Position numbers and translations under genes: made by a program
Assembly: GCA_037969565.1 (NCBI GenBank)
Contig: JBBKXQ010000008.1
Coordinates: forward strand, 14,527-78,526
Direction of reading: 5' to 3'
Source of the DNA: Acidimicrobiales bacterium
Lineage (GTDB): Bacteria; Actinomycetota; Acidimicrobiia; Acidimicrobiales; SZUA-35
Length of the DNA: 64,000 nucleotides
Notes under the pieces: generated by a model
Database searches by the model: none
Seen by the model: the letters and a program-made list of their open reading frames with translations, nothing else
Told to the model about the DNA's origin: nothing
Shown here: positions 3,742 to 27,293 of the stretch, one piece after another
Layout of the letters: the number at the start of each line of letters is the position of its first letter
Position numbering within the stretch: the first letter of the stretch is position 1

Positions 3742-4257
3742 TCAGCCTCCGTAGAAGCCCCATGAGTCCGTCGAAAGGCTCACCTCGGAGATGTCAATCG
3801 TCTCGTTCCCATTGGTGAGCACGAGGTCGGTCACGACGATCGTGAAGGGCCCTCCCCCCGCTCCTCCGCCACCGGTCTGGCTTGTGGCCGGCAGCACGCG
3901 AGCAATCTCGATCGTTCCGCTGGTCGCGAGCCAAATGGCCTCAACCTCGACTTCTTCAAAATCGCTGGCGACGTCGTGACACGGCCAAACCCGAAGGCCC
4001 GAGCCCACCTTCAACTTGCCGGTCCAAGTTTTGTCGGCGAGGTCGACCAGGCCAGGTGGGATGTCCTCGCGTTCGGTACCGGGCAACGGAGACAGCGAGA
4101 GTTGTGCGGTGCCTGCCTCGTTCACGCCGGTGAAGGAACGACCGCAACTGTTGTCATGCTCGAAAGCGAGATCGCTCGGAACCCCGCTGCTCGAGCACGC
4201 CACCAGTACGAGGACAGGAAGGACGATCGACACCACTGACGTCAGCGATCTGCGCAT
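3742..4257 (-). CDS. Lipoprotein of unknown function
   Basis: MRRSLTSVVSIVLPVLVLVACSSSG is a signal peptide plus lipobox (LVAC). The rest of the 540-aa ORF upstream of this Met overlaps the GNAT gene region and looks non-coding. Confidence 0.6.
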   Translation of the reverse strand: MRRSLTSVVSIVLPVLVLVACSSSGVPSDLAFEHDNSCGRSFTGVNEAGTAQLSLSPLPGTEREDIPPGLVDLADKTWTGKLKVGSGLRVWPCHDVASDFEEVEVEAIWLATSGTIEIARVLPATSQTGGGGAGGGPFTIVVTDLVLTNGNETIDISEVSLSTDSWGFYGG

Positions 4258-4490
4258 AGCGCCCTGTCGGTCCTTCGGGATGAGTGTGGAGGGGGCCGAG
4301 TCGAGATCGGACTGCCTTTTACGCCCTTCGGCGTCGACCGACGTTCGAACATCGAGCTGCGAACGTGCCACCTTTTCGGTTCCATTCTTCCTCAGACTCT
4401 CATGAATCGATGCGAATGCGATCTGCTGAGTCGTCTCCGGCGGACGAGTGTCAGGCCATCTCGCGGGTCGGGTCCCGAGGAACCCAACAG

Positions 4491-4979
4491 CTACGGGCAG
4501 TGCTTGATGAGAACGTGCTCGTCGTAGCTGATGCCGTGCTCGACGGTGTGAATCAGACGTTCGGTCACGGTCCATCCCGCTGCCTCGTAGAAGGCGATCG
4601 CAGCGACGTTGTCGATCCTGGCATGCAACTCGAACTGCCGGTGGCCACCGGCAGCGATCATGGCTTCGCCCTGCGCCAGCAAATGTCGGCCGAGGCCCGT
4701 GCCCTGGTGGTCTGGCTCGACGAACAGGTGGACGAGCTGGTGCCCGCTGACCGTGAAGTGGGCAATCGGTGCGCCATCGGCCACGGCCACCCACGTCTCG
4801 AACTCGGATTCGGGCCGGAACCAATCGCGGAGTTGCCGTCTGGTGCCTTGTGGGTCGGGGGCCTGAAGCGCGCCGGCGAGCAGTTGCGAGGAGTACGTCT
4901 TGGTGAAGCAGCGGTGGTGATAGTCCGCAACGGCCTCGGCGTCGTCGGGAGTGGCAGTGCGAATCGCAATCGCTTCCAT
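4491..4979 (-). CDS. GNAT family N-acetyltransferase
   Basis: 162 aa from MEAIAIRTATPDDAEAV. Acetyl-CoA loop is HQGTGLGRHLL, followed by NVAAIAFYEAAGW. Confidence 0.8.
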   Translation of the reverse strand: MEAIAIRTATPDDAEAVADYHHRCFTKTYSSQLLAGALQAPDPQGTRRQLRDWFRPESEFETWVAVADGAPIAHFTVSGHQLVHLFVEPDHQGTGLGRHLLAQGEAMIAAGGHRQFELHARIDNVAAIAFYEAAGWTVTERLIHTVEHGISYDEHVLIKHCP

Positions 4980-5085
4980 GTCTCGATACTGACACGGAGC
5001 CGCTATTGGATGTTCCTGAGCACGCTTCGTGCGGGTGCTGCTTCGTCGAGCGGAAGCGGTCTTCGATGCAAGGTAGTTTGCTCGA

Positions 5086-5433
5086 GTGAGCCTCACCTGG
5101 GAGCAAGTAATTGTCGACTCGATTTCGCCAGTCGACCTCGGACGTTGGTGGTGCGCCGCACTGGGCTGGGTCGTCGCGAACGACGACCCAGATGAGTTCG
5201 AGATTCGGCCCGACATCGATCGAATGCCCGGCCTTCTGTTCGCTCGAGTGCCCGAAGCCAAGACCGTCAAGAACAGACTCCACATCGATCTTCGGCCAGA
5301 TGATCGCGATGCCGAGGTCGAGCGCCTCATAGGACTTGGTGCGAGTCGAATTGATGTCGGGCAACGCAACGAGACCTGGGTCGTTCTCGGAGATCCCGAG
5401 GGCAACGAGTTCTGCGTGTTGTCGTCGCGCTGA
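5086..5433 (+). CDS. VOC (glyoxalase/bleomycin-resistance fold) family protein
   Basis: 115 aa. LHIDLRPDD...ETWVVLGDPEGNEFCV is typical of glyoxalase-like domain proteins. Confidence 0.65.
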   Translation: MSLTWEQVIVDSISPVDLGRWWCAALGWVVANDDPDEFEIRPDIDRMPGLLFARVPEAKTVKNRLHIDLRPDDRDAEVERLIGLGASRIDVGQRNETWVVLGDPEGNEFCVLSSR

Positions 5434-5475
5434 CGCGCCAGTCAGGGCCTGAGAGCACTCTCGCCGAGGTGATGA

Positions 5476-7167
5476 TCAGACGGGATCGGATCGGCGCAGG
5501 TCGGTGACGAACTGTGCAACGTTGTCACGAGTGGGTGCGTGGCCGGTCAGTGCAACCAGGAACGCCTCTCGCTCGATCACGCACAGCGTCGTGTCGGTGA
5601 GAGCGGTCACCGTCGCTGTGCGCGGGACGTCGAGAACCAACGCCATCTCGCCGAATCCGTCGCCGCGGCCGAGCACAGCCACTCGTTCGCCACCCCGAGA
5701 AACTTCGACCGTGCCGCCCGCAATCACGTAGTACCGGTCACCGGTTTCGCCGAGCCGGATGATTATTTGTCCGATGGAAACCGACAGCTCCGTGGCGTTC
5801 TGAGCGAGACCTTCGAGGGCCGGCACGGGAAGGGATCGGAAGATCCCCAGCGAGCGCAGCAGCGCGATCCTGACAGTGGGGTATGTGGGTGACCGGTCGG
5901 CGTCCATCAGCGGTCGCAAGCGAAGCAAGACGACGGTCGGCACCATCGCGCCGGTGACGAGAAGTGCGCCACGGATGTCAACGAGCGCGATGGCGATCGG
6001 CACCAGCGCCGACCCGAGGCCCCATGCTGCCATCGCCAGGCCCTCCTTGAACGCAAACACGCGAGCAAGTAGTTGGGTCGACGTGACACGTTGGAGCATC
6101 GTCTGGCCCGTCACCTCGAGCAGGCTGCGCGAGGCTCCGGTCACCGCTGCCGCCGCGAATGCCGAGACGACTGACACCTCGAGGCCGAGGGTGACGAATG
6201 CGGCTGCGGCGACCAGCGATGCCCCGGCCATCACGGGCATGAGACGAGCCCGCGTCAGGAGCTTGGGCGAGATGAACGCGCCGAGCACGGCGCCGGCTCC
6301 GTGAGCAGCCGCCAGGTATCCGGCACCCGATTCGCCGATGCCCAGCGTTCCCACGGCGAGCACCACGACCAGTACGTCGAAGGCGCCCACCATCAGGAAC
6401 GTTGCGCCGAGCACGATGACGACCTCGCGCGGCGCCGCGGCCCGGGCAAGTGCGCGTGCCCCTTGGTTGAGCTGGTGGATCGCGTTTCGTGTCGGTATGT
6501 CGGCATCCGCAACGAGCGGAGGGACGAGATCTCGGAGGTTGGCGACGAGCAAGGTGGCGAGCACCAGACAGGCCGAGCCGGCGGCGTAGACCGCTCCAGA
6601 TGTCGAGACGGCGAGTATCGCGCCGGCACCGGCGGGCGCCATCACGAGGCCCAGGCTCAGGATCCATCCCGTCAGCGCGTTGAGGGCGACGAGCTCCTCG
6701 GTCGATCGAACGATTCCCGGTGAGACGACGGCATGGGCCGGATGGGTGATGACCAGCAACATTGCTGTCGCGGCGCCCAACGCGTAGCTCAGTAGTGCTG
6801 GTGCGCCCGAGAGCAGCGAGGCTGCGGTCGCCGCCATCGCCAATGATTGGGAGGCATAGGCACCGACGAGCACACGGCCGGCCCCGAACCGATCGATCAG
6901 CGGTCCGGCCAACGGTGCACAGAGTGCGGTCGGCGCCAGGAGCGCCAGCGAGACGATCCCGGTTTCGGTGGCGCCACCCCTGGAGTAGGCGTAGACGAGC
7001 ATTGCAACCCACGGACCGAACTCGGCAAGCCGATAGAGAAGCAGCGCGCCGGCTTCTCTACGCATCACGCTGCTGGCCGACAGAGCGCTCAACGGTGACG
7101 GTGTCGCTCCCACCGCGCGAACACTACTGATTCGACCTCGGGCCGTCGCCTGCCTCCACGAATTCAC
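5476..7167 (-). CDS. MFS transporter fused to a C-terminal cyclic-nucleotide-binding domain
   Basis: About 12 hydrophobic helices, then a cNMP-binding fold (GETGDRYYVIAGGTVEVS...LGRGDGFGEMALV...RTATVTA). The start may instead be the Met at about 7065. Confidence 0.7.
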   Translation of the reverse strand: MNSWRQATARGRISSVRAVGATPSPLSALSASSVMRREAGALLLYRLAEFGPWVAMLVYAYSRGGATETGIVSLALLAPTALCAPLAGPLIDRFGAGRVLVGAYASQSLAMAATAASLLSGAPALLSYALGAATAMLLVITHPAHAVVSPGIVRSTEELVALNALTGWILSLGLVMAPAGAGAILAVSTSGAVYAAGSACLVLATLLVANLRDLVPPLVADADIPTRNAIHQLNQGARALARAAAPREVVIVLGATFLMVGAFDVLVVVLAVGTLGIGESGAGYLAAAHGAGAVLGAFISPKLLTRARLMPVMAGASLVAAAAFVTLGLEVSVVSAFAAAAVTGASRSLLEVTGQTMLQRVTSTQLLARVFAFKEGLAMAAWGLGSALVPIAIALVDIRGALLVTGAMVPTVVLLRLRPLMDADRSPTYPTVRIALLRSLGIFRSLPVPALEGLAQNATELSVSIGQIIIRLGETGDRYYVIAGGTVEVSRGGERVAVLGRGDGFGEMALVLDVPRTATVTALTDTTLCVIEREAFLVALTGHAPTRDNVAQFVTDLRRSDPV

Positions 7168-7175
7168 TCAGGATC

Positions 7176-7203
7176 TACTGACTCAATTGTTGATGAGTGA
7201 GTA
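7176..7203 (+). promoter_or_regulatory. Imperfect inverted repeat (candidate ArsR operator) overlapping the arsR start
   Basis: TACTGACTCA-N8-TGAGTGAGTA, arms matching 9/10, spanning the TTG 7187 and ATG 7193 start candidates. Confidence 0.35.
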
Positions 7204-7861
7204 CGATCTTCGTGTGCTGGAGAATCTGGAGGGTCGGGCTCGTCTTCATGCGGCGTTGGGGGAGCCGGTGCGATTGGCAATCGTCGAGGATCTGGCGCTG
7301 AGCGATCGGTCGCCGAAAGAGTTGGGTGTCCGGTTCGGTTTGGCGTCGAATTCGTTGGCCCATCATGTCGATGTGCTCGAGTCGGTCGGCCTGATTGAAC
7401 GCTTCGTGTCGGCTGGTGACCGTCGGCGCCGCTATCTGCGTCTTGTGTCCGCTCCGCTGGCTGAGCTGGGCGTGGCCACAGCCGCCCCGTCAGGTCGGGT
7501 GCTGTTCGTGTGTTCGCACAACTCGGCTCGATCGCAGCTGGCAGCAGCGTTGTGGCGAGATCGAACGGGTGGTGTCGCATCGTCGGCCGGTACGCATCCG
7601 GCTGACCGTGTCCATCCGGGCGCGATCGCGGCTGGGAAGCGAGCCGGTCTGGACCTCGGTGGCGTATCGCCCCGCGTGCTGGCGCCCGGTGAGACCGCCG
7701 ATCTCGTGGTGACGGTCTGTGACCAAGCCCATGAGGAACTCCACCCCGAGCCTTCGTGGTGGCACTGGTCGATCCCTGATCCCGCCGAAGCGGGCACGGC
7801 AGCAGCGTTCGACGCAGCCGTTGCTGATCTCGATTCGCGTATCACCGCACTCACCCACTGA
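7187..7861 (+). CDS. ArsR-family HTH regulator fused to an LMW-PTPase-type arsenate reductase
   Basis: The N-terminus is an ArsR/SmtB wHTH (LGEPVRLAIVEDL...LAHHVDVLESVGLI). The C-terminus has the CX5R P-loop VLFVCSHNSARSQ. An alternative ATG start lies at 7193. Confidence 0.75.
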   Translation: MLMSEYDLRVLENLEGRARLHAALGEPVRLAIVEDLALSDRSPKELGVRFGLASNSLAHHVDVLESVGLIERFVSAGDRRRRYLRLVSAPLAELGVATAAPSGRVLFVCSHNSARSQLAAALWRDRTGGVASSAGTHPADRVHPGAIAAGKRAGLDLGGVSPRVLAPGETADLVVTVCDQAHEELHPEPSWWHWSIPDPAEAGTAAAFDAAVADLDSRITALTH

Positions 7862-7924
7862 AAGGCAGAAAGAGCCAATGGCGAACAACGAAACGATGAC
7901 TGCTCCGAGCGTGGACGTGTCGGC

Positions 7925-8944
7925 GTGAGCGTGCGAGTCGGGATCAACGGGTTCGGTCGAATCGGACGCCTCGTGGTTCGGGCCTTGCGGGAGCAGCCCG
8001 GCCTGCAGCTGGTGCATGTGAACGAGCTGTCGGGCGACGCTCCCACCGCTGCGCATCTGTTGGAGTTCGACACCGTGCACGGCCGATACACCGGGACCGT
8101 CGCCACCGACGGAACGAACCTCACCGTCGACGGCCACACCGTCTCGTACTCGTCGCACGACACGCCGGGTGCGGTTGCGTGGCACGAGCGAGGCGCCGAG
8201 ATCGTGCTCGAATGCAGCGGCGCGTTCCGCACCGCCGAAACACTCCAGCCCTATTTCGGCCAAGGGGTCCGCAAAGTGATCGTGGCCGCACCGGTGAAGA
8301 GCGATGGCGTCTTGAACATCGTCATGGGCTGCAACGATCACCTCTATGACCCGGCCACCAATCATGTCGTGACCGCAGCGTCATGCACCACCAACTGCCT
8401 GGCCCCGGTGGTCAAGGTGCTGCACGAACAAATCGGCATCGAGCGAGGCGTGATCACGACAATCCATGACGTCACCAACACCCAGGTCATCGTCGACGCG
8501 CCCCACAAGGATTTGCGCAGGGCCCGTTCGGCGCTGAACTCGCTGATCCCGACCTCAACCGGTTCGGCGACGGCGATCACGATGATCTATCCCGAGCTGA
8601 CCGGGAAGCTCAACGGGTTGGCGGTTCGCGTCCCACTGCTCAACGCGTCACTCACCGACGCGGTCTTCACGATGTCTCGCGACGTGACCGTCGAGGAGAT
8701 CAACGGTCTCCTCCGAGACGCCGCGACCGGCGAGCTCGACGGCATCCTCGGCTTCGAGGACCGACCCCTCGTCTCCGCCGACTACACCAACGACACTCGT
8801 TCGGGGATCGTCGATGGCCCTTCGACGATGGTGGTCGACGGCCGCATGGTCAAGGTGCTGATCTGGTATGACAACGAGTACGGCTACGCCTTCCGTCTGG
8901 CCGACCTTGCCGCCAAGGTGGCGGCGATACTCCCGCCGTCATGA
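7925..8944 (+). CDS. gap: Glyceraldehyde-3-phosphate dehydrogenase (ars-cluster type)
   Basis: [12 protein letters not shown] motif and catalytic [10 protein letters not shown]. It sits directly upstream of arsJ with an ATGA overlap. Confidence 0.9.
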
Positions 8945-10185
8945 AGGTCCGCAACTACGCCCTCGTCACCGCCGGCTACTGGGCATTCACGATCACCGAC
9001 GGGGCACTTCGGATGCTGGTGCTCCTCTACTTCCACGACCTCGGCTACTCGCCGGTGTCGATCGCGTTCTTGTTCTTGCTGTACGAGTTCATGGGGATCG
9101 TCACCAACCTGCTCGGCGGCTGGGTCGGCGCCCGATCCGGTCTGAACCGGACCCTGCTTGCCGGGCTCGGCCTGCAAATCGTTGCCCTCGTCGCCCTCAC
9201 GTTCCACGAACCCAGCTGGCGGGAGTGGGTGTCGGTCGGTTTCGTGATGGGCGCACAGGCGTTGTCGGGAGTGGCGAAGGATCTCACCAAGATGAGTTCG
9301 AAGAGCGCGGTCAAGTTCGTCGCCGGCGACAGCGAGGGCGCCCTGTTCCGAATGGTCGCTGGCCTCACCGGTTCCAAGAACGCACTCAAGGGTGTCGGGT
9401 TCTTCATCGGCGCCGCGCTGCTTTCGTGGGTGGGGTACGACGCCGCGCTGTGGGCCATGGCCGGACTGATCACCGTCGCCCTCGTTGCGGTCGCGACCCT
9501 CCTCGATGAAGACATCGGCAGGTCGAAGAAGAAGCCACCGCTGCGCTCGGTCCTGTCGAAATCGTCGGCGATCAACCGGCTCGCGGCAGCCCGCTTCTTC
9601 CTGTTCGGCTCTCGCGACATCTGGTTCGTGGTGGCACTGCCGGTGTTCCTCGACGACGTGCTCGACTGGTCGTTCGAAGGCATCGGCGCGTTCCTCGCGG
9701 CGTGGGTGATCGGCTACGGCATGATCCAATCCGTCGCACCCCGGATACTGCGACGATCATCGTCTGGGGTCCAAGCCGAGATCGGCGCAGCCCGAACCTG
9801 GGCGCTCGTCCTCACCGGGGTATCGGCTGCGATCGCCATCGCGGTCGCCCTCGACATGGCCACGACGTTCGCAGTCGTCGGCGGGTTGATCGTGTTCGGG
9901 GTGGTGTTCGCGCTCAACTCCTCACTGCATTCGTATCTGATCCTGGCCTACGCCGATGGCGACGACGTCTCGCTCGACGTCGGGTTCTACTACTCGGCCA
10001 ACGCCGCCGGCCGCCTGGTAGGCACACTGCTGTCGGGCACGCTGTATTTGTGGGGTGGGATCGAGGCAGCACTCTGGGGCTCGACTGCGTTCGTGGCGAT
10101 CACCTGGCTGCTCACCTTGCGGCTTCCCCCACTCCAGGTTGCCTCCGCGGTCGAGAAGGCGCAGGTCGCTCAGCCTCGCCGCTGA
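8941..10185 (+). CDS. arsJ: ArsJ-type MFS permease (organoarsenical efflux)
   Basis: The N-terminus [32 protein letters not shown] is characteristic of ArsJ. The protein is polytopic and is translationally coupled to the GAPDH gene. Confidence 0.8.
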
Positions 10186-10276
10186 TCGACGACTCAACCG
10201 GCGAGACCGCGTACCTCTCTCGTTCAGCTCATCGTGCTGTTCGACCGAGGTAGAAAGACCGGGGTAGAAGTAGGGA

Positions 10277-10813
10277 ATGAACGTCGACGAGGAACCGAGC
10301 GCAGTTCAGCCGGACTGGCCTGCTGCGCTTCACCGAGTGCTGCGGAGCGCAGGGGTCGGGCACGTCAGCTACGTGCCCGACGCCGGACACACGGCCCTGA
10401 TCAATCTGTGCATCGCCGACGAACGAATCACCACGAATGTGCTGACGACCGAAGAGGAGGGGATCGCCATCGCCGCAGGCGCTTGGTTGGGTGGCACCCG
10501 GTCGGCGATTCTCATGCAGTCGTCCGGGGTAGGGAACTGCATCAACATGCTCTCGCTGCCGGTGATCGCACGGATACCCCTGTTGATGCTGGTGACGATG
10601 CGTGGCGAGTGGGCCGAGCTCAATCCGTGGCAGAACCCCATGGGACAGGCCACAGAAGCCTGCTTGCGAGCGGTTGGCCTCACCGTGATGCGAGCCGAAA
10701 CCGCCGTCGATGTGATCGACACCGTCGAACAGGCCACCAGAATGACCTACGACGCCGATCAGCAGATCGCTGTGCTGATCGGCCAGCGCCTCCTGGGGGA
10801 GAAGAAGTGGTGA
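10277..10813 (+). CDS. Sulfopyruvate/phosphonopyruvate decarboxylase-like ThDP enzyme, alpha (PYR-domain) subunit
   Basis: 178 aa; VSYVPDAGHTALI...TTEEEGIAIAAGAWLGG...MQSSGVGNCIN matches the ComD/Ppd N-domain pattern. Confidence 0.7.
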   Translation: MNVDEEPSAVQPDWPAALHRVLRSAGVGHVSYVPDAGHTALINLCIADERITTNVLTTEEEGIAIAAGAWLGGTRSAILMQSSGVGNCINMLSLPVIARIPLLMLVTMRGEWAELNPWQNPMGQATEACLRAVGLTVMRAETAVDVIDTVEQATRMTYDADQQIAVLIGQRLLGEKKW

Positions 10814-12969: not shown

Positions 12970-14010
12970 TCAGCCCTCGAGGGGCGGGGCGTCGGGGCCG
13001 AGTGTGATCGTCGGAAGGATCGTCGCCTCGAACTCGTCGAGCCAGGCCGGGGTGTCGATGTCGGCGGCGGCCCAGATCCCGATCGGTTCGGACCCCTCGA
13101 CCCTGACGAACCACAACCGGAAGGTCAGGGACGAATTGATGATCCGGTTCTGCTGTTGGACGACCAGCGGGTCGAATGGCGCGGTGCTCGCGGTCAGCAC
13201 ACAGCGGGGGCAGTCGTCGAACAAGCTGCCCTCGACATCCGGGTTGACACGAAGGTCCCAAACCTCGACGGTGCGCCCGGAGATGGTGGTGTCTGGCCGT
13301 CGCTCGGCGATGGTCTCGGTCTCGGCGAACATCGCCTCCAGATCATTCGGATCCATGCTTCCTGGTTCTCGATTGAACTTGTCGACCGATGCAGACTTCG
13401 TGTACCAACCGCCGATGCGAGCAGCGACAAAGACTCTCACGGCTTCATCGGGCTTTGTGAGGAACAGTTGGAACTCACCAGGTCGGGCGTAGACCACTTC
13501 CATTGTGTCCGGAGCCTCGAAATTCATGGACACGCCGAGGTAGTCGGTGGCTACGGCTCCGGCGGGGAGCGGCAGACCGGGGAGGAGGATCGTCGGCGCT
13601 GCCTCCGCTTCGGCGACCGTCGTTGCGGTCTCGGCCACGGTCGTCGACGGGTCCTCGGTGGCGGCCTCGCTGCTCGACGGCTGCTCGGTGCTGGACGGCT
13701 GCTCGGTGGTGGACGACTGCTCGTCGGGTTGGTCGGTTACCAAGACGGCTTTGTCGTCACCCCTGTTCAGCAACGCTCCCGCTCCGACGGCGAGGACGGC
13801 CACAGCGGCAGCGATCGCCAGCCACCTCCGCCCTCGGTTGTGTGTTGCCGCGTCTGTGTCTTCTGCGGTCAGCATGATGATTTCCCTCGTTCCGGTGGTG
13901 TCCGGCTCGGCCATCCGTTCTCGAATGGTCTGCCAGGCGGTGGACGATGGAGTTGCCTGATCCGCGATCTGGTTCAGATCACGTTCGATCCGATCGTTGA
14001 ACTTGCTCAT
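12970..14010 (-). CDS. Putative membrane-anchored anti-sigma factor
   Basis: Starts at MSKFNDRIERDL with an ATGA overlap onto the sigma factor stop. Single TM (WLAIAAAVAVLAVGAGALL), a Ser/Thr/Glu-rich linker (STTEQPSSTEQPSSSE), then a C-terminal domain I do not recognise. Confidence 0.55.
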   Translation of the reverse strand: MSKFNDRIERDLNQIADQATPSSTAWQTIRERMAEPDTTGTREIIMLTAEDTDAATHNRGRRWLAIAAAVAVLAVGAGALLNRGDDKAVLVTDQPDEQSSTTEQPSSTEQPSSSEAATEDPSTTVAETATTVAEAEAAPTILLPGLPLPAGAVATDYLGVSMNFEAPDTMEVVYARPGEFQLFLTKPDEAVRVFVAARIGGWYTKSASVDKFNREPGSMDPNDLEAMFAETETIAERRPDTTISGRTVEVWDLRVNPDVEGSLFDDCPRCVLTASTAPFDPLVVQQQNRIINSSLTFRLWFVRVEGSEPIGIWAAADIDTPAWLDEFEATILPTITLGPDAPPLEG

Positions 14011-14492
14011 GAGCCCAGCTCCCTGCGAAGTGCGGCGAGCCCTCGACGCAAGTGGGAACGAACCGTTGCCCCTGGCATGTCGAGGATCCTTGCGATGTCG
14101 GACGACCGGTAGCCGCCGTAGTACCGAAGTACGACAACGATGCGCTGGTCTTCCGGGAGTTTCCCCAGTACATCCCAGAGCTCGCCTGCGCTGTTCGTCA
14201 GCGCCATGGGTCGCTCGGGAGGATTCTGATTCATCACCCGTCGGCGCCGAAGGGCCGATCGGCATCGGCTCACGACTGCGCTGCGAAGGTAGGCGCCGGG
14301 CTTGTCGATCTCGCCCATTCGCCGAGAAACCTCGACGAAACTGTCTTGGACGAGATCCTCGGCCTCCGCGTTGCTACCCACCAGCGTGTACGCAAGACGC
14401 ACCATGCCGGCGTACTCGACCTTGAAGAGGTCGCCAAGGACCTCGTCGGGATCAAGTGCCGTTTCGGCAGTGGTCAATGTCTGCTCCATCAC
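14007..14492 (-). CDS. ECF-type RNA polymerase sigma-70 family factor
   Basis: Region 2 (AEDLVQDSFVEV) and region 4 HTH (YRSSDIARILDMPGATVRSHLRRGL). Confidence 0.85.
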   Translation of the reverse strand: MMEQTLTTAETALDPDEVLGDLFKVEYAGMVRLAYTLVGSNAEAEDLVQDSFVEVSRRMGEIDKPGAYLRSAVVSRCRSALRRRRVMNQNPPERPMALTNSAGELWDVLGKLPEDQRIVVVLRYYGGYRSSDIARILDMPGATVRSHLRRGLAALRRELGS

Positions 14493-16042: not shown

Positions 16043-18667
16043 GTGATGCCGACTGATGTGTTGAGGCCGCTTCCATCGGGAATGGTCACGTTCTTGTTCA
16101 CCGACATCGAAGGCTCGACGAAGATACTCAAGCGAGTTCCCGACAAGGCCGCCGGAATCTTCGACCGTCACAACGAGATCATTCGTAACGCCATTCGTGG
16201 TTGCGGTGGCCACGAGATCGGCACCGAGGGCGACTCGTTCTTCGTGGCCTTCGATGATGCCGATCAGGCATTCGACGCCTGCGCATCGGCCCAGACAGCG
16301 CTCGTGGCCGAGCCCTGGCCCGAAGATGGTGTTGTCCGTGTTCGCATGGGCGTGCATTCAGGGCTGGCCGCCCCACGAGGCGACAACTATCTGGCGCTCG
16401 CCGTACACCAGGCGGCCCGGGTCTCCGCTGCCGCTCACGGGGGCCAGGTCATCATCAGCGGGACGGCGCTCGAAGGGGCCAAGAGGCAACCCCCAGGCGA
16501 GACGGTCGCCCTGGGGCGTTACCGGGTGCGCGACTTCGACGAACCGGAACTGCTCTACCGGCTCGATCCGCCCGATGTACCGGTCACCGATCGACCGATT
16601 CGGGCCACGCCGGCCGGCGGACACAACCTGATCACCCCGCAGACGTCGTTCGTCGGTCGCAGCCTTGATGTCGACTTGGTCTCGGCGTCGCTCGCCACGA
16701 ACCGGATCCTGAATCTCGTCGGTCTGGGTGGCACGGGCAAGACGAGACTCGCAACCGAAGTTGGGCTGCGGGCGGCTGCGGATTGGACCGACGGGGTATG
16801 GATCGTCGAGTTGGCAGATCTCGCCGACTCGTCCTTGGTGCCCATGGCGATCGCCGATGCGCTCGGTCTAGCCCCGACCGGCGGACTCGACCCATGGCCC
16901 GACGTGCTGGCGTGGGCCCGGGACAAGAACTCACTGCTCATCATCGACAACATCGAGACCCATCTCGATGTGTGCGCCAGACTTCTCCCTGAACTGATTC
17001 GCCATCCGGGCATCGGCGTGATGACAACGAGCCGAGAGCCGCTCCAGGTCGGCAGCGAGGTCGTCTACCGGGTCAAGTCGCTGGATCTACCGGCGTCGAG
17101 CGACGACCCGGCCTCGGTGAGAGGTTCGCCATCGGTCGAGCTCTTCGTCGATCGTGCTCGGACTCGGCAACCGAACTTCGAACTCGATGACCAGTCGGCC
17201 CGTGACATCGCACTGCTGTGCCGGCGGCTCGACGGACTCCCGTTGGCAATCGAGATCGCTGCTGCCCGAGTGAGCGTGATGAGTGTCAACGAGATCCTCG
17301 ACGGTTTGCATGATCGATTCGATCTGCTCCGAAGTACCGACCGCGATCTGCCAGAGCGGCATCGAACGATGCACAACCTGCTCTCCTGGAGCTACGACCT
17401 ACTGGAACCAGCAGAACAGATTGCCTTTCGTCGTCTGGCGGTGTTCGGCGGCTCGTTCACCGTCGACGCCGCGGTCGCCGCTCTCGCCGATTCGGATCTG
17501 GCGTCCGACGACGTCGCCGAACTCGTCTGGGCCCTCGTCGACAAGTCGCTCGTTGTCGCTGATCTGACGGAGCACAGCACCCGGTACCGCCTTCTCGAAA
17601 CGGTCGGTGATTTCGCTGAGCGCCTGATGGTCGATCACGGCGATGAATCTTCGACCGTGCGCCGATCCGCGGCCGCCCTACTCGAGCGAGTCGGCCCGTG
17701 GTCGACGGCTGATCGAGCCTGGATCGGGGAGGTCAGCGTCGAATTGGCCAACATTCGCTCGCTCGTCGATCGGCTGGGGAACAACGAACAGGAACTGGCT
17801 CAAGCACTCGTGTGCTCCCTCGCTCGTTACCACGATGCCGTGCAGTCCTTCAGCACGGGAATCGAGGAACTAGGGCGCGCGGTCGAGCGATTCGATGCAC
17901 CCACGCCGACACGAGTGGCGATGCTCACGTCGCTCGCCGATCTGCGGTTGCGTCGGGCCGAGACCACCGAGGCGCAAGCACTGCTCGACACTGCATTCCA
18001 ACTCGCCGGCGAGGTTGGTGCACCAACGTGGAACGACGCGGCGGTCGATCGCACGCGGGGTGAATTGCTGTTTCGTTCCGGGGCTTCGGGCGAGGCGGTC
18101 GACGTGGCCCGGGCCGCACTGGCCCGCGGTCTCTCACCTCTCGGCGAGGCCCGGATGTGGAACCTCGACGGGATCGCTCACTATTTCGACGGCGACTACT
18201 CGAGCGCATTCAAAGCCTTCGAGCATGAGCTCGAGCTCTATGAGCACCTCGGCTTCGAGGTCAATGTGGCCAGCGCCCACGGCAATCTCGCCGAGGCGGC
18301 CCTGCATCTCGACGACGTTCGCAGCGCAGCAGAACACCAACAGGCCTGTCTCGACCTCGCCCTGGTGATCGGACAGCCGGTGATGCTCGCCTACTCCTCG
18401 CTGGTGGCTGCGCGAATGGCTGTCGACCTCGAGAATTGGGAGCTGGCACTTCGACTACAGGCATCGGCCCAAAGCCACCTCGCAACGGCCGGCCACGCGC
18501 TGTACCCCGATGACCAGGCTTTGCTCGACGAGCTCCGCACCGCAGTAAACGAACGGATTGGGTCCGAAGCGGCCTCCGCCGCGGAGCTGGTTGGCGCACG
18601 GCTCCAAGCCATCGAGGCGGCGTCGCTGGCTGCCGAGGTGTTCGCGATCGTACGTTCCACCGACTGA
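16043..18667 (+). CDS. Class III cyclase-homology domain / STAND (NB-ARC-like) ATPase / TPR-repeat protein
   Basis: Cyclase motifs VTFLFTDIEGST and TEGDSFFVAF. Walker A GLGGTGKTRLA (nt ~16721-16744), Walker B LLIIDNIE, and the GLPLA-type LDGLPLAIEIAA. The C-terminal ~350 aa are helical and TPR-like. No HTH output domain seen. Confidence 0.8.
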   Translation: MMPTDVLRPLPSGMVTFLFTDIEGSTKILKRVPDKAAGIFDRHNEIIRNAIRGCGGHEIGTEGDSFFVAFDDADQAFDACASAQTALVAEPWPEDGVVRVRMGVHSGLAAPRGDNYLALAVHQAARVSAAAHGGQVIISGTALEGAKRQPPGETVALGRYRVRDFDEPELLYRLDPPDVPVTDRPIRATPAGGHNLITPQTSFVGRSLDVDLVSASLATNRILNLVGLGGTGKTRLATEVGLRAAADWTDGVWIVELADLADSSLVPMAIADALGLAPTGGLDPWPDVLAWARDKNSLLIIDNIETHLDVCARLLPELIRHPGIGVMTTSREPLQVGSEVVYRVKSLDLPASSDDPASVRGSPSVELFVDRARTRQPNFELDDQSARDIALLCRRLDGLPLAIEIAAARVSVMSVNEILDGLHDRFDLLRSTDRDLPERHRTMHNLLSWSYDLLEPAEQIAFRRLAVFGGSFTVDAAVAALADSDLASDDVAELVWALVDKSLVVADLTEHSTRYRLLETVGDFAERLMVDHGDESSTVRRSAAALLERVGPWSTADRAWIGEVSVELANIRSLVDRLGNNEQELAQALVCSLARYHDAVQSFSTGIEELGRAVERFDAPTPTRVAMLTSLADLRLRRAETTEAQALLDTAFQLAGEVGAPTWNDAAVDRTRGELLFRSGASGEAVDVARAALARGLSPLGEARMWNLDGIAHYFDGDYSSAFKAFEHELELYEHLGFEVNVASAHGNLAEAALHLDDVRSAAEHQQACLDLALVIGQPVMLAYSSLVAARMAVDLENWELALRLQASAQSHLATAGHALYPDDQALLDELRTAVNERIGSEAASAAELVGARLQAIEAASLAAEVFAIVRSTD

Positions 18668-18680
18668 GAGAGGGTCAATC

Positions 18681-20099
18681 ATGAGTGTCAAGTCATCCGG
18701 GCCGCGGCGTCCGAAGCGTCCGAAGCGCAAGCCGAGTACGCCGTGGCGGGGTCGCGTCGTCTACTCACCCAGAGACGGAGGATACGCCCGCCGGCCCGGC
18801 GAGATCCTGAGCCGGGACGCCGTCTCTCGGGATCGGATCAACAGGATCGTCGGCCTGCAAGAGGTACGCACGATCGATACGGGAGATGGCGAACGCGAAT
18901 ACCTGCATCGATTCGAGGAGCGCACGAAACTCACCGTCGAGGACGTCATCGACAAACTGCACTTCGAGCAGCTGTCCGGCGAACCGAACTACGTGATGTT
19001 CGCCAATCCGATCTACGCCAATCCCGTCTATGCGAACCCGGTCTATGCCAACCCGGTCTATGCGAATCCAGCCGACGAACAAGCGAGCGGTCAGTTCGCC
19101 AACCCGGTATATGCGAACCCGGTGTATGCGAGCCCGGTCTATGCCAACCCTGTCTACGCCAATCCGATCTACGCCAACGCCTACATCTGCGATGGCACTC
19201 GCCCGAGCACGGCTCGGCCTGCGCAAAGACCAGACCGCAAAGGTCCACCCCATTACGGCAAAATCGCCGGGAGGGGCCGTGCCGTCATCTTCGATACGGG
19301 AATCTCCAAGCCGAAGTTCTGTCCGCCGATGCTGCGAACGCTGAGTGATCGCAATCGCGACGAATGGGAAGTGCCCGACAACGGCAAGGTCGGGAAAGGT
19401 GACGGGTTCCTCGACCCGGTGAGTGGTCACGGCACCTTCATCGCTGGCATCATTCAGACGCTGGCGCCGGGAACCAAGATCCTTCCCCGCAACATCATCA
19501 CGTCATTCGGCGATGTGGACGTCTTCACCGTGGTCTCGTGGGTGGCCCGGCTTCTGGCACAGGGAAAATTCGACAAACACACGGTCGTCAACATGTCGTT
19601 CGGCGGCTACGCAGACCGAAACATGGATTCGCTCCAACGGGCCGTTCGGAGAATCCAACGGCAGAAAGCGGTCGTGGTCGCGTCGGCTGGCAATGATGCG
19701 ACGAGCCGCCCGATGTTTCCGGCCTGCCTCCCGGGCGTCGTCGGCGTGGCCGCCCTCGGGCGTCATGGTCGGGCTCCCTTCTCGAATCACGGACCCTGGG
19801 TGAGCGCCTGTGCGCCGGGCACGGACCTCGTGAGCGCCTTCTATCGATACAACGGCGACATGGAGCTCTTCCCGATGCCGGGAAGCGCCGACCCCGATGA
19901 GTACGAGAACTGGGCTCGGTGGACCGGCACGAGCTTTGCGGCACCGATCGTCGTGTCCGCACTGCTCCAACACATGCGATTGACGGGGTGCACGGCTCGG
20001 AAGGCAGCCGATCGCGTCGTGTATGCGCCCGGCCTGTTCCGGTTGCCGGACATGGGCACGGTCGTCAATCTCGACCTGGGGGATCGGTTCTGTTTCTGA
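18681..20099 (+). CDS. Subtilase (peptidase S8) lacking a signal peptide, with prodomain-like N-terminus and an ANP[VI]Y repeat linker
   Basis: ATG at 18681 lies 13 nt after the upstream stop and is preceded by GAGAGGG. Triad contexts VIFDTGI (Asp), GHGTFIAG (His), GTSFAAP (Ser). The N-terminus is basic (GPRRPKRPKRKP) and not hydrophobic. Confidence 0.8.
   Translation: MSVKSSGPRRPKRPKRKPSTPWRGRVVYSPRDGGYARRPGEILSRDAVSRDRINRIVGLQEVRTIDTGDGEREYLHRFEERTKLTVEDVIDKLHFEQLSGEPNYVMFANPIYANPVYANPVYANPVYANPADEQASGQFANPVYANPVYASPVYANPVYANPIYANAYICDGTRPSTARPAQRPDRKGPPHYGKIAGRGRAVIFDTGISKPKFCPPMLRTLSDRNRDEWEVPDNGKVGKGDGFLDPVSGHGTFIAGIIQTLAPGTKILPRNIITSFGDVDVFTVVSWVARLLAQGKFDKHTVVNMSFGGYADRNMDSLQRAVRRIQRQKAVVVASAGNDATSRPMFPACLPGVVGVAALGRHGRAPFSNHGPWVSACAPGTDLVSAFYRYNGDMELFPMPGSADPDEYENWARWTGTSFAAPIVVSALLQHMRLTGCTARKAADRVVYAPGLFRLPDMGTVVNLDLGDRFCF
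19002..19178 (+). repeat. In-frame 15-bp tandem repeat encoding ANP[VI]Y x4, a 12-aa spacer, then x5 plus degenerate ends
   Basis: Blocks at 19002-19061 and 19098-19172. Copies differ mainly at synonymous positions (gcc/gcg, aat/aac, ccg/ccc/cct, gtc/gta/gtg, tac/tat). Confidence 0.95.
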
Positions 20100-24385: not shown

Positions 24386-24420
24386 GGTTCCATCTGACGC
24401 CGAGTTGCCGCTGCGTGATA

Positions 24421-24434
24421 GGGCCGTTGGTCCC
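24421..24434 (-). promoter_or_regulatory. DosR/DevR-like box B1 (GGGCCGTTGGTCCC)
   Basis: 14-bp quasi-palindrome. Its centre lies 42.5 nt upstream of the CBS start codon at 24385. Confidence 0.55.
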
Positions 24435-24455
24435 GGTGCGGAATACACCGATCGC

Positions 24456-24469
24456 GGGACGTTCTGCTC
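24456..24469 (+). promoter_or_regulatory. DosR/DevR-like box B2 (GGGACGTTCTGCTC)
   Basis: Conserved distal half-site GGGAC. Centre is 42.5 nt upstream of GTG 24505, with GACGAT at -12..-7. Confidence 0.45.
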
Positions 24470-24504
24470 TCCCCGAGCCCCGAACAATTCCTGACGATGA
24501 AACG

Positions 24505-25431
24505 GTGACTTCCCGGCAACTCGTCATCCTGGGATCATCCAGCCAAGTGCCAACAAGGGACCGCGCCCAGAATGGCTACGCAGTTCAGTGGGATGAGCAG
24601 CTGTTTCTGTTCGATCCGGGCGAGGGATTTCACCGTCAGACACTCTTGGCCGGAGTGGCGATCTCACGAGCGAACGCGCTGTTCATCTCGCACTTTCACG
24701 GAGATCACTGCCTTGGCTTGCCGGGCCTCATCCATCGCCGCTTGCTCGAACCCGGCGTCCCTCTCTTGCCGACCTTCTATCCCTCCGAAGGCGAGGGAAT
24801 CCTCGACATGCTGATGCACGCAAGTTTCGACAGCACCCCTCCGGCGCTCGAGCTACGTCCGGTGATGGGTTCGGGCTCGCTCGGCCATTTGGGTGACCTC
24901 GAAATCACCGCTGCTCGTCTCGAGCATCCCGCGCCGACCTACGGGTATCGGATCTCGGAGGTTGACTCGATCGGATTCGATGCACGAAAGCTGAAAGCGG
25001 CCGGTCTGACCGGGAAGGCGGTCGGCGATCTCGAGCGCGACGGGAAGGTCATGACGCCGCAGGGCCGTCTTCACCGCGCTGATTTCGAACAACCCCGACC
25101 TGGCCAGTCGATTGCATTCGTCATGGACACCGCATTCTGTGATGCTGCTCTGACGCTCGCCCACGGAGTGGACCTTCTGATCTGCGAAGCGACTTTCCTC
25201 GAAAGTGATCGACGGCTTGCCGACGAATCTGGCCACATGACAGCCCGCGACGCCGGGCGGCTGGCGAGCGAGGCGGGAGCACGTCGGGTGGTCCTCTCCC
25301 ACTTCTCGGCTCGATACTCCGATGCAGCCAAGTTCGGCGAGGAAGCAGGCGAGCTGCACCCGGATGTCGTCGTGGCTCGTGACCTGGCTCGGATTCCGTT
25401 CCCGTTGCGGGTCCCGAGGGGAAAGGCCTGA
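24505..25431 (+). CDS. MBL-fold hydrolase, ribonuclease Z/BN-like
   Basis: LVILGSSSQVPTRDRAQNGY...LFDPGEG and the HxHxDH motif ISHFHGDHCLG. GTG 24505 was chosen because the annotated upstream part overlaps the promoter boxes. Confidence 0.7.
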   Translation: MTSRQLVILGSSSQVPTRDRAQNGYAVQWDEQLFLFDPGEGFHRQTLLAGVAISRANALFISHFHGDHCLGLPGLIHRRLLEPGVPLLPTFYPSEGEGILDMLMHASFDSTPPALELRPVMGSGSLGHLGDLEITAARLEHPAPTYGYRISEVDSIGFDARKLKAAGLTGKAVGDLERDGKVMTPQGRLHRADFEQPRPGQSIAFVMDTAFCDAALTLAHGVDLLICEATFLESDRRLADESGHMTARDAGRLASEAGARRVVLSHFSARYSDAAKFGEEAGELHPDVVVARDLARIPFPLRVPRGKA

Positions 25432-25461: not shown

Positions 25462-25998
25462 CTAGAGGTTGAGCTGGCGGCACCGCCGGGCGAGCATGGT
25501 TCCCCATTCCTCGGCCCGTTCCTCCTCGCCGACGAGAAGTGGCCCGTCGCTCCCGTCGAGCAGGAAGCTTTCGGGACCTTCCATCGGCGTGAAGCCGTGG
25601 CGATGGAGACGCCGGGCGATTCCCCGGGCGGCCGATCCTGTCAGGATCGAGGGTTTGTTGATTCGGGTGTCGAACGCCAAGCCCATCTGACTGGATGCCC
25701 GCGGCAGCGAGTCGAGCCAATCCCGAAGCGCGGGAGCGGTCGCGGAATCGTCGAGCTCGACATCAGGGCTTTCGGCGGCGTGTTTGATCGCCACCAGACG
25801 GCTCGATTCGGTTGCGATGCCGTGCTGATGTGTCGGCCCTCCGACCACGACCACATCGGCCCCGACGATCTCGTCAACAGTGATGTCGTCCGTACCCCCG
25901 ACCTTGATGGGACCGACCTTGCCCAGACCTCGGGCGATTGCCTCGGCAATCGTGTGCGTATGGCCGTACATCGATTCGTAAACCAGGACTGACTTCAT
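25462..25998 (-). CDS. Flavodoxin-fold protein
   Basis: Starts MKSVLVYESMYGHTHTIAEAIARGL, a flavodoxin-like FMN phosphate-binding N-terminus. Confidence 0.7.
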   Translation of the reverse strand: MKSVLVYESMYGHTHTIAEAIARGLGKVGPIKVGGTDDITVDEIVGADVVVVGGPTHQHGIATESSRLVAIKHAAESPDVELDDSATAPALRDWLDSLPRASSQMGLAFDTRINKPSILTGSAARGIARRLHRHGFTPMEGPESFLLDGSDGPLLVGEEERAEEWGTMLARRCRQLNL

Positions 25999-26096
25999 TT
26001 CGGAACTCCTCTCGGCTCTCGCCAACGACACGACGAGTCGATGGCCTGTCGTCACATTGACGCCACGTGCCCGGCCGGAGCAGAGGCGAAGGTCGG

Positions 26097-27293
26097 CTAT
26101 TTCGCTGGGCCCGACGGAGCATCGGAATTCGGCGTCACCAGGTGACGGAGAATGACGGCAACGCCGCCAGCGCCCACCCGATCGTCATCGGGCGGCGAAA
26201 CAATCACGCGGGCTCCCGTTTCCAGCGCTCGCTGAACGGCGAAATCGAACCAGTCGTGGGATGGCATTCGGTCGGCGACGAAGAGGGTGTCGACCGTGCC
26301 GGCGGTGATGTAGTCGATGGCACCCGCCAAACCCCGCACGGCTCGACCGCCGATCCGAAGTCCCGAGACCAATCGGTCGAGGGCCTCGTTGATGGTTTGT
26401 GTTGTAGCGGATTCAACGGCTGCGATTGCAGCCAGCCGAATCCGATCGACCGACTCGGGCTCGTGCCGTCCCCCTGCTTCGGCCTTCAGAGCCGACCAAC
26501 GAACGTCTTCGGGCAGTTGGGCCAGGATGAATACGCAGGCCCGCACATCACCGGAGATCACGACGTGTTTCGTCCCGAGCTCGGCCGCCAGCTTGTCCAA
26601 CTTGTCGGCAACGAGTGCGGCGTTTGCCTCCCAGACTTGTTCCGCTCGGGTCTGATAACGGTGTTGCGACCACCCTCCCTGTGCCGCTCGGTGGATGAAT
26701 TCCTCTTGACCGGTCACGGTTGCCACTTGGTCGATCCCAGCAGGCGACACCGCGAAGATGTCGGCGCCGACTCGATCGGCCAACGCCGCGAGTGTCAGAT
26801 CGTGACGGGCAAGCTCGGCCATCACCGGCACGAGTCGGGGCAGTCGTCCAACCACGGCCGCTTCGCGATCTCGGTCCTGTTCGTTTCGCAGCTGGCAGAA
26901 GGCCGAACTGTCGCGGTTTGCCGTGACGAGAACGGTGCCTCCGTCCGGTGGCAGTTGGCGTACCAACTGGTCCATTTGTGCGAGCGCTGCATCGGGGGCG
27001 CCGCGATGGCGAAGTTGAACCTGGCGTGAGTGCCAGCGGCTCTCGAGCGCATCCGGACCTGACCCGGGCCGTGGTGGCCGGATGATGGTTGTGAGATGGG
27101 GACCCGGGAGGCGATAGCGATCCAGGACGTCTGAAGTTGTACGAAGCTCGTAGTCCAGTCTCCGTTGTGTCTGGGTGAGTGGCATGTCTTGACCCCCTTG
27201 GCTGTGTCCGGTCAAGGTAGGAAACGGCTCGCTCATCGCCCAGGGTCGAAGGTCACTGACCCAGTCGTCCCCCGGAAAGTTCTCTGAACACAA
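26097..27293 (-). CDS. Bacterial eRF1-like (baeRF / Vms1-Ankzf1-like, Rv2629-type) protein
   Basis: FIHRAAQGGWSQHRYQTRAEQ aligns by eye with the eRF1 GGQ loop (KHGRGGQSALRFARLR). The C-terminal region resembles eRF1 domain 3. Start uncertain (27293, 27236 or 27185). Confidence 0.6.
   Translation of the reverse strand: MCSENFPGDDWVSDLRPWAMSEPFPTLTGHSQGGQDMPLTQTQRRLDYELRTTSDVLDRYRLPGPHLTTIIRPPRPGSGPDALESRWHSRQVQLRHRGAPDAALAQMDQLVRQLPPDGGTVLVTANRDSSAFCQLRNEQDRDREAAVVGRLPRLVPVMAELARHDLTLAALADRVGADIFAVSPAGIDQVATVTGQEEFIHRAAQGGWSQHRYQTRAEQVWEANAALVADKLDKLAAELGTKHVVISGDVRACVFILAQLPEDVRWSALKAEAGGRHEPESVDRIRLAAIAAVESATTQTINEALDRLVSGLRIGGRAVRGLAGAIDYITAGTVDTLFVADRMPSHDWFDFAVQRALETGARVIVSPPDDDRVGAGGVAVILRHLVTPNSDAPSGPAK

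Follow-up and report, generated by a model that had tools for sequence, protein, structure and literature searches.

In the published ECF54 context of Actinobacteria, the gene of a sigma factor for extracytoplasmic function (ECF) is associated in genomes with genes for a TPR-CHAT protein and a subtilase, and proteolytic control has been proposed (PMC8999054, PMC7826278). Here we describe a pair of adjacent genes that has such a subtilase but a different partner, located in a 64,000-nucleotide stretch of an Acidimicrobiales bacterium (assembly GCA_037969565.1, contig JBBKXQ010000008.1, positions 14,527 to 78,526; this whole stretch is called the window). Gene 1 encodes a cyclase domain, a STAND NTPase module and a TPR solenoid in one protein, and gene 2 a subtilase that is sister to those of ECF54, with 39% identity over 410 aa to one of them (from locus L017), a common prodomain motif (W..RV..GGFAYRP...PN.V.FA), a short repeat linker that is often present in the sister lineage as well, and, in both cases, no signal peptide. 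The partner carries TPRs in both contexts. The differences lie in what surrounds the protease: the window has neither CHAT nor ECF sigma factor, the partner is instead a STAND NTPase with a cyclase, and the repeats are NPxYA-type 5-mers, as against units of other kinds, or none, in the sister lineage. Craspase, which comprises Cas7-11, the TPR-CHAT protein Csx29, Csx30 and an ECF sigma factor, also bears on that sister lineage, since it provides experimental evidence that such a sigma factor can be controlled by a TPR-CHAT protease through cleavage of a partner (PMC10028731); the window has no CRISPR component, no CHAT and no sigma factor. Sequence comparison places gene 2 among the S8 subtilases of the lineage found with ECF54.

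Gene 1, likewise, belongs to a known class, that of the cyclase-STAND-TPR proteins (the Rv0386 type minus its helix-turn-helix, or HTH), and is a close cousin of the AfsR-like regulators, which combine a SARP with an NLR-like (nucleotide-binding, leucine-rich repeat) switch. It has the same order of cyclase, STAND ATPase and TPR as the mycobacterial cyclase-ATPase-TPR-LuxR proteins Rv0386, Rv1358 and Rv2488c, and some of its homologs carry GerE/LuxR, but the window protein itself has no C-terminal LuxR/GerE HTH. Its cyclase domain is closest to those of Ma1120 and Rv1900c (LipJ), which share non-canonical substrate-specifying residues. We know of no dedicated protease partner described for the mycobacterial Rv0386-type proteins. 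With the AfsR-type SARP-NB-ARC-TPR regulators, gene 1 shares the chassis of a nucleotide-binding oligomerization domain (NOD) and TPRs, and gene 1 homologs at 47-53% identity that carry Trans_reg_C and BTAD keep the protease, whereas the output in the window is a cyclase and not DNA binding. The signals upstream of AfsR are stated as unknown in a paper whose text mentions neither peptidase nor cyclase, and in which “protease” occurs only as a laboratory reagent (bioRxiv 10.64898/2026.09.02.748808).

The combination of an NB-ARC-type NOD with a separately encoded protease zymogen recalls Apaf-1/caspase-9 and CED-4/CED-3, from which the window differs in having no CARD-like adaptor, a subtilase in place of a caspase, an N-terminal enzyme in place of an adaptor, and TPRs in place of WD40 repeats. 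In the RRNPP systems (Rap/NprR/PlcR/AimR, with Phr-type peptides), a TPR receptor with an HTH or phosphatase output is served by peptides of 5-7 residues that are matured by subtilisin-type proteases. The array units of the gene 2 family, 5-6 aa long, match these peptides in length, with no claim of kinship in sequence; however, the window has no secreted pro-peptide or signal peptide, the receptor would be a STAND NTPase with a cyclase, and released peptides, if any, would be intracellular and derived from the protease’s own linker. As for Pycsar, there is a weak match to PycC and no cNMP_binding domain (cNMP, cyclic nucleotide monophosphate) in gene 2 by Pfam. The literature searched does not describe that this STAND clade is obligately paired with the protease, that the protease stays constant across output swaps, or that the zymogen linker holds an array of peptides under selection.

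Joint inheritance and exchangeable outputs

The case that genes 1 and 2 form a unit is made by other genomes. A scan based on the protease alignment, with one genome per species, returned 80 loci, 20 of which have a STAND-linked, gene-2-type protease. Upstream DNA is readable in 19 of these (L009 is cut by a contig end), and in all 19 a gene 1 homolog lies directly upstream on the same strand, at full length in 18 (L021 is cut by a contig end). From the other side, the protease gene stands directly downstream of each of the 8 gene 1 homologs looked up, two of them from Chloroflexi, and 22 further pairs of protease and STAND matches lie on contigs of equal size. The taxa of the scanned pairs include Acidimicrobiia, Solirubrobacterales, Kineosporiaceae and one Acidobacteriota metagenome-assembled genome (MAG), so that, overall, the pair is spread over Actinomycetota and Chloroflexota and occurs in a single MAG of Acidobacteriota. 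In these loci, genes 1 and 2 either share 4 nt or are separated by 29-72 nt, the flanking genes differ from locus to locus, and the pairwise distances measured on the NOD correlate with those on the S8 domain (r = 0.74, 37 pairs). Chance adjacency is excluded on these comparisons of sequence, and the pairing is obligate; that genes 1 and 2 constitute an uncharacterized, functionally linked two-gene module is strongly supported. An earlier note on this DNA had proposed just such a module and had named the adjacency of orthologs among the points to check, and the synteny across phyla bears it out. Four loci (L042, L007, L005 and L015, from “MFD” MAG assemblies) look frameshifted, perhaps through sequencing error, and were not counted as pseudogenes.

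What varies among the pairs is the N-terminal domain of the STAND protein. Gene 1 homologs at 46-53% identity replace or extend this domain and keep the protease: one (P0215) is a SARP-NOD-TPR protein (Trans_reg_C plus BTAD) without a cyclase; another (P0132) has a SARP N-terminal to the cyclase; and a third (P0187) combines GerE with the cyclase and is followed by a gene fragment that opens with the protease signature W-S-N-R-V...F-A-Y-T-P-G-E. The output domain is thus swappable, being a cyclase, a SARP, a SARP plus cyclase, or GerE with a cyclase, against a protease that stays the same.

Of the other 60 of the 80 loci, about 56 carry a TPR-CHAT protein (Pfam CHAT, E ~1e-30) beside the protease, mostly with an ECF sigma-70 gene, in Ilumatobacter, Actinomadura, Kribbella, Microbacterium, Nocardioides and others; a few, cut by contig ends, show one partner, and L043 and L047 show neither. 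These sister-clade loci are the published ECF54 context. Their proteases form one clade in a neighbor-joining tree, with the STAND-linked branch outside, the exception being L007, where a STAND-clade protease lies beside a TPR-CHAT gene (6874-10740) in what resembles a partner swap, although both genes look frameshifted and the assembly is perhaps erroneous. No CHAT or ECF sigma gene is found in the window or in the 19 STAND-linked loci, the two contexts never co-occur in the scanned loci, and a TPR array is the sole feature common to all protease partners. One locus of the CHAT/ECF type (L028, 10250-12423) has two S8 paralogs in tandem.

Anatomy of the two proteins and the repeat array

The domain structure of gene 1 was established with Pfam, with an AlphaFold2 (AF2) model and conservation columns from 66 homologs, and with Foldseek. 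Full-length homologs are found at 43-65% identity, the model has a predicted local distance difference test score (pLDDT) of 91, and its best overall Foldseek match is 6mfv, a STAND-TPR protein. Pfam reports Guanylate_cyc (PF00211) at aa 12-146 (E 2.9e-7; 30.7 bits, against a gathering cut-off of 21.9), NB-ARC/AAA_22 weakly at aa 218-451 (NB-ARC E 7e-3) and TPR_12 at aa 702-772. The cyclase domain superposes on Ma1120 of Mycobacterium avium (4wp9) with a TM score of 0.9 and a root-mean-square deviation of 1.8 A, and matches Ma1120 in the PDB at E 1.9e-21, and Foldseek places the modelled NOD with those of Apaf-1, CED-4 and the plant resistosomes. The motifs of the NOD follow in the order Walker A (G226-K232), Walker B LLIIDN (D301), TSR sensor-1 (T328/R330) and GLPLAI (G397-L400), all invariant or nearly so; in the winged helix, the stretch where MHD would be expected, located by eye without structural superposition, reads TRYRLLE (T512-E518, nearly invariant) and has no His-Asp. 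No DNA-binding or HTH domain was matched in the window protein by Pfam, NCBIfam or Foldseek. The earlier note’s account of gene 1 as cyclase, STAND/NB-ARC and TPR, with no DNA-binding output, therefore stands, with one change of emphasis. It had observed that both metal-binding Asp residues of the cyclase are kept and that the canonical Lys and Asn are replaced, and had suggested that the domain may be regulatory rather than catalytic. The observations are correct: D20, D63 and the transition-state R125 are invariant in the 66 homologs and align with the Ma1120 motifs, Gly59 occupies the canonical substrate-specifying (purine) Lys position (IGTEGD, versus VKSQGD in Ma1120) in a column that varies across the family, and a nearly invariant His121, 4 residues before R125, occupies what we take, from the motif G..VN.A.R, to be the canonical transition-state Asn position. 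The suggestion is neither shown nor favored. With D20, D63 and R125 all invariant, the pattern fits a working, non-canonical cyclase better than a dead one.

For gene 2, 1716 homologs were found, the best 120 being mostly full length. Peptidase_S8 (PF00082) is matched at aa 203-428 (E 3.4e-19), PDB profile matches of the S8 domain include thermitase, subtilisin BPN’, Tk-subtilisin and the intracellular subtilisins, and the catalytic D205, H250 and S418, together with the oxyanion N338, are invariant in 110 homologs, in agreement with the intact Asp/His/Ser contexts that had been read by eye. The absence of a Sec, Tat or lipobox signal, also read by eye at first, is upheld as well: a hydropathy scan detects no hydrophobic N-terminus in gene 2, with a maximal 15-residue mean Kyte-Doolittle value of 0.06 in the first 70 aa (the median of the N-terminal maxima in the family is 0.63, from 110 sequences), and a motif scan of all 110 detects neither a Tat motif nor a lipobox. 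The AF2 model of gene 2 (pLDDT 85, predicted TM score 0.87) has, at aa 27-108, an alpha/beta sandwich of two helices and a beta-sheet with pLDDT 90-97 (strands 27-29, 35-44, 62-68, 71-77 and 101-108; helices 47-57 and 86-95), docked on the catalytic domain, and in Foldseek the whole model aligns over 449-529 columns to unprocessed pro-subtilisin E, fervidolysin and ProN-Tk-SP (3whi, 1r6v, 3afg) and to PCSK9 (5vlh). The proposal of an I9-like prodomain ending in EPNYV is, accordingly, supported by predicted fold alone, Inhibitor_I9 (PF05922) giving no Pfam match in gene 2 at E up to 0.1. Given the lack of an export signal and the alignment to unprocessed pro-forms, gene 2 is best described as a predicted cytoplasmic pro-subtilase, zymogen-like in its arrangement.

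An array of pentapeptides lies between the prodomain and the catalytic domain of gene 2. Tandem Repeats Finder (TRF) confirms it at a period of 15, with 11.3 copies and 71% nucleotide matches, and the AF2 model predicts it to be disordered (pLDDT <50 for aa 118-161). Disordered segments are of the kind that is bound by TPR grooves. Period-5 units of the form P-[VLIFM]-[YFWHM]-[AGS]-[NS] are present in all 120 of the best gene 2 homologs, in a median of 9 copies (range ~3-19), as PVYAS, PVYAN, PLYGN or PFYAN, for example, and the SARP-linked protease has nine ANPFG units; the units are alike within one protein and differ between proteins. At the level of DNA, they are much less uniform. Divergence among the window units is 0.48 at third codon positions versus 0.04-0.08 at positions 1 and 2, and in 5 of 6 STAND-linked loci, 25-52% of third positions vary between units that agree in peptide (9% in the SARP-linked L083), while positions 1 and 2 differ at 0-10% in all six loci tested; in these figures the units were chosen by amino-acid pattern, a pattern that spans nearly the whole array. 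Since third positions have diverged where positions 1 and 2 were kept, and the DNA is 71% self-identical, the codon pattern indicates that the peptide sequence of the unit is kept by selection and is not the product of recent slippage. In many of the CHAT-linked relatives, other units take the place of these (FANPAT, GNPSFF, HPSTWP, GNPVMS, FPNPGA, NPFKA). The window unit, F/A-N-P-x-Y (aa 106-170), matches the FxNPxY/NPxY turn motif of eukaryotes, and a core of N-P (or S-P) is kept in nearly all unit types of the family; a beta-turn spiral or a recognition motif is conceivable.

Two further elements adjoin the array. The segment that follows it in gene 2, GTRPSTARPA, to which a related motif is present in the CHAT-linked relatives, is a candidate maturation site or docking segment. 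In many members of both clades, the array is flanked by Cys-rich clusters (CGCGC, CCxxCGPHP, GCQCGCEPAC; alignment columns ~215-245, as in L030, L033, L037, L013 and L083), which suggests a possible metal or redox site; gene 2 of the window has no such cluster. A 4Fe-4S protein has been listed among the ECF54 neighbors (PMC7826278).

Proposed place of the protease in signaling

STAND proteins carry the sensor in their C-terminal repeats and the output in their N-terminal domain, and class III cyclases are obligate dimers. From this layout we infer that the two genes would form one cytoplasmic signaling module, in which the TPR arm of gene 1 would sense, the NB-ARC domain would act as an NTP-driven oligomerization switch and the cyclase would be the output, oligomerization bringing two cyclase domains together so that cyclic nucleotide is made. 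In gene 2, the prodomain would be tethered to the catalytic domain by the disordered array of NP-x-aromatic pentapeptides. The reading that we favor, tentatively and at a probability of roughly 0.4, is that the zymogen lies on the sensor side of this switch: the TPR arm would dock on the array, or on peptides cut from it, and the STAND switch would then read the zymogen's processing state. A Ca2+ or stress cue as the trigger of the zymogen would suit subtilase biology. The argument for this placement comes from the swaps. A SARP or a cyclase needs no protease for its output, by analogy with AfsR and Rv0386, so a protease that does not change goes with the unchanging NOD-TPR part of the partner rather than with the exchanged outputs; regulatory outputs swap freely, and the protease stays with NOD-TPR or with TPR-CHAT. 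The invariance of the catalytic motifs of cyclase, NTPase and protease alike also counts in favor of this reading, as do the obligate pairing, the TPR array common to all protease partners, and the selection on the repeat peptide.

Several observations weigh against it. Repeat-unit type does not follow TPR distance (Mantel r = 0.05, or -0.06 when the NOD is controlled for, in 37 pairs), in tests that are crude, being made on whole-region p-distances. BLASTP detects no shared ancestry between the TPR arm of gene 1 and that of the CHAT partner (E = 0.24), and the array is absent in some CHAT-linked relatives (Kribbella, Actinoallomurus), so that it cannot be what links every pair. In structure the NOD is closest to Apaf-1 and CED-4, for which protease zymogens are effectors to be activated, and this speaks for the effector alternative considered below. 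The cyclase has other residues in place of the canonical Lys and Asn, and its activity and product are predicted. Co-variation in the S1 pocket was considered and set aside: residue 345, taken by by-eye alignment as the equivalent of Gly166 of subtilisin BPN’, varies with the type of repeat (T for PVYAS, M/L for PVYAN and PFYAN, S for PL[YW]GN) but follows clade structure, and thus proves nothing. A bolder version of the sensor-side reading would make the array a built-in, multi-copy store of ligand, the maturing zymogen cutting its own linker into ~10 identical NPxYA-type pentapeptides that fill the TPR groove and fire the switch. We consider it a long shot. Were it true, the module would amount to Phr/RRNPP-like peptide signaling in self-contained, intracellular form, feeding, according to lineage, three outputs: cNMP, SARP-dependent transcription, and an ECF sigma factor via CHAT.

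The kinship of the NOD with the Apaf-1/procaspase-9 and CED-4/CED-3 holoenzymes and with plant resistosomes, as found by Foldseek, leads directly to the alternative in which the protease is an effector: the TPR arm would sense a ligand, a phage protein for instance, the STAND oligomer would activate the zymogen by proximity, and the protease would degrade proteins of the cell or the invader, with the cyclase as a second signal or amplifier. By hydropathy, AF2 and Foldseek, gene 2 does look like the latent cytoplasmic zymogen that this requires; cyclase and CHAT have been reported as NLR-associated effector domains in filamentous bacteria; and two loci, L085 and L092, have alongside them a methyltransferase/Eco57I gene and an AIPR gene in the one and a PemK toxin gene in the other. 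However, there is no adaptor domain common to both proteins, and the STAND protein already has a fused output of its own, regulatory in type (cyclase, SARP or GerE). Most flanks consist of ordinary metabolism genes. PADLOC gives matches at noise level, the best being PDC-M01A (E 0.023) and mad8 (E 0.043), with its “subtilase” model PDLC03014 (E 1.4e-8) covering part of the S8 core only; the viral contigs searched hold only generic S8 matches at 23-26% identity and no module, and the plasmid collection searched holds no module either, its one match record being really an 11.8-Mb chromosome. In NCBIfam, mycosin, PrtP, QhpE, PatA and FxSxx_TPR all fall far below cut-off, and such subthreshold matches reflect generic S8 or NB-ARC-TPR similarity. 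We regard the effector alternative as less likely than the sensor-side reading, yet as a serious competitor to it. The earlier note had leaned towards it, describing an NLR/Avs-like conflict system with a latent protease effector, and that framing is not specifically supported: the N-terminal output of the STAND protein is swappable, the sister clade sits in an ECF-sigma context, no catalogued defense system is matched, the viral and plasmid collections searched do not contain the module, and defense-like neighbors were seen in L085 only. Taken together, the evidence points to regulatory signaling with the protease on the sensor side more than to a conflict system.

Other roles for the protease are easier to discount. 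It might act on the STAND partner itself, cleaving away an inhibitory TPR arm or switching the protein off, with the sigma factor as the corresponding target in the sister clade; this would agree with the proteolytic control proposed for ECF54 from its subtilase and CHAT neighbors (PMC8999054) and with the stoichiometric co-expression that translational coupling implies, but it is an idea by analogy that leaves the selected repeat array without a role, and no conserved cleavage motif came to light in gene 1, although no search aimed at one was made; we think it improbable. The array is what recommends a cassette of the pheromone type or of the RiPP type (ribosomally synthesized and post-translationally modified peptide), in which head-to-tail identical units of 5-6 residues, under selection at the peptide level, would be the cores of a precursor, the S8 protease would release or cyclize exported pentapeptides, and the STAND protein would regulate the pathway. 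Gene 2 is weakly similar to the PatA/PatG cyanobactin proteases, and STAND proteins with a SARP are among the classical regulators in secondary metabolism. Yet no transporter, modifying enzyme or biosynthetic gene is conserved beside the pair in the loci inspected, gene 2 has no export signal, and most partners carry a cyclase and not a DNA-binding domain, which together make such a cassette highly improbable. Least credible is an arrangement of the Pycsar/CBASS type, where the cNMP made by the cyclase would directly activate the protease: the genes are adjacent and the cyclase is weakly PycC-like (E 4e-4, aa 15-83 only), but Pfam and AF2 reveal no cNMP-binding, GAF or SAVED-type domain in the protease, whose family is paired with cyclase-less SARP STAND and TPR-CHAT proteins as well, so we consider this very unlikely.

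The pair has a wider bearing. Actinobacteria and Chloroflexi have many NLR-like STAND regulators, and the signals that switch them on are mostly unknown; the pair offers a concrete, testable candidate for the upstream component of three regulator classes, NLR-like regulators and the ECF54 sigma factors included. It would also be a compact two-protein system in which to study proteolysis coupled to an NLR-type switch and cyclic-nucleotide synthesis in bacteria, and, should the array prove to be a ligand store or tripwire, a new signaling principle.

Coordinates, neighborhood and minor observations

The positions of the two genes and their features are collected in Table 1. The open reading frames (ORFs), their common direction, the 13-nt gap and the GAGAGGG element that had been reported for the pair all agree with the ORF list and the sequence. 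A longer gene 2, from a TTG at 18558, was considered and rejected: the added segment would be non-hydrophobic, would overlap gene 1 and would supply no signal peptide, and the N-termini of homologs do not support it.

Table 1. Genes, domains and motifs of the locus, in window coordinates
Feature	Position	Strand	Extent and remarks	Evidence
Gene 1, cyclase-STAND(NB-ARC)-TPR	16043 (GTG) or 16046 (ATG)..18667	+	874 or 873 aa; stop TGA 18665-18667	translation, Pfam, AF2, Foldseek
Class III nucleotidyl cyclase domain	16079..16567	+	gene 1 aa 12-174	Pfam PF00211, Ma1120 profile, Foldseek, invariant columns
NB-ARC-type NOD and winged helix	16658..17635	+	gene 1 aa 205-530	weak Pfam, 66-homolog columns, Foldseek
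Walker A GLGGTGKT	16721-16744	+	inside NOD	
C-terminal TPR solenoid, presumed sensor arm	17645..18658	+	gene 1 aa 534-871, ~17 helices	Pfam TPR_12, AF2, PDB TPR matches
GAGAGGG ribosome-binding site	18668..18674	+	6 nt before gene 2 ATG, within 13-nt intergenic gap	sequence
Gene 2, predicted cytoplasmic pro-subtilase	18681 (ATG)..20099	+	472 aa	translation, Pfam PF00082, homologs, AF2
Basic non-hydrophobic tail		+	gene 2 aa 1-21	hydropathy
I9-like prodomain (by fold)	18744..19004	+	gene 2 aa 22-108, invariant Trp22 to conserved EPNYVMF strand	AF2, Foldseek
Tandem pentapeptide array ANP[VI]Y	19002..19177	+	~11 units, one interruption ADEQASGQF	TRF, AF2
Post-array motif GTRPSTARPA	19194..19223	+	family consensus G-x-R-x-S-S-A-R-P-A; G172, A178, P180 invariant or near-invariant	
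S8 catalytic domain	19278..20075	+	gene 2 aa 200-465; D205, H250, N338 (oxyanion), S418	Pfam, invariant columns, PDB profile matches

The pair stands isolated among unrelated, ordinary genes. Upstream lie genes for a major facilitator superfamily (MFS) transporter, a thiamine pyrophosphate (TPP) enzyme, a sulfatase and a luciferase-like oxidoreductase, and downstream a convergent Na+/H+ exchanger and a TrkA_C protein; the GC content of the pair region, 0.64, equals that of the remainder of the window. A scan of the locus for promoters and terminators gave no signal exceeding shuffle expectation, and a search of Rfam gave no RNA match. An MFS transporter of 563 aa (5476-7167, minus strand) has a C-terminal cNMP_binding domain (E 6e-18) and lies ~9 kb from the cyclase gene, and in L020 (5691-7334) and L012 (5889-6761), genes with such a domain, with or without the MFS part, are found directly upstream of the pair. 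A linked cNMP receptor was nevertheless rejected, cNMP-binding genes being present in cyclase-less CHAT-type loci as well, so that the linkage is inconsistent.

Among the homologous loci, L085 (1108-5630), where the pair directly follows the N6_Mtase/Eco57I gene and the AIPR (abortive-infection) gene, is the only defense-like neighborhood in those inspected. In L092, from Chloroflexi, another, larger cyclase-STAND protein, of 1439 aa and Pkinase-AAA_16-TPR_MalT-cyclase order (1627-5946), is encoded before the pair, and the PemK gene follows the pair at 10278-10634. Elsewhere in the window, a 398-aa protein (26097-27293, minus strand) resembles the bacterial archaeo-eukaryotic release factors (baeRF_family2 E 3.5e-29, acVLRF1), its gene having as neighbors one of flavodoxin-like type (25462-26055) and one with a metallo-beta-lactamase fold (24415-25431). 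Two long ORFs on the minus strand, at 12970-14265 (431 aa) and 3742-5364 (540 aa), have no Pfam match, the former holding an 18-nt tandem repeat of 3.2 copies at 13666-13723, and a 123-nt tandem repeat of 1.8 copies with 88% matches (TRF score 366) is present at 61487-61711.

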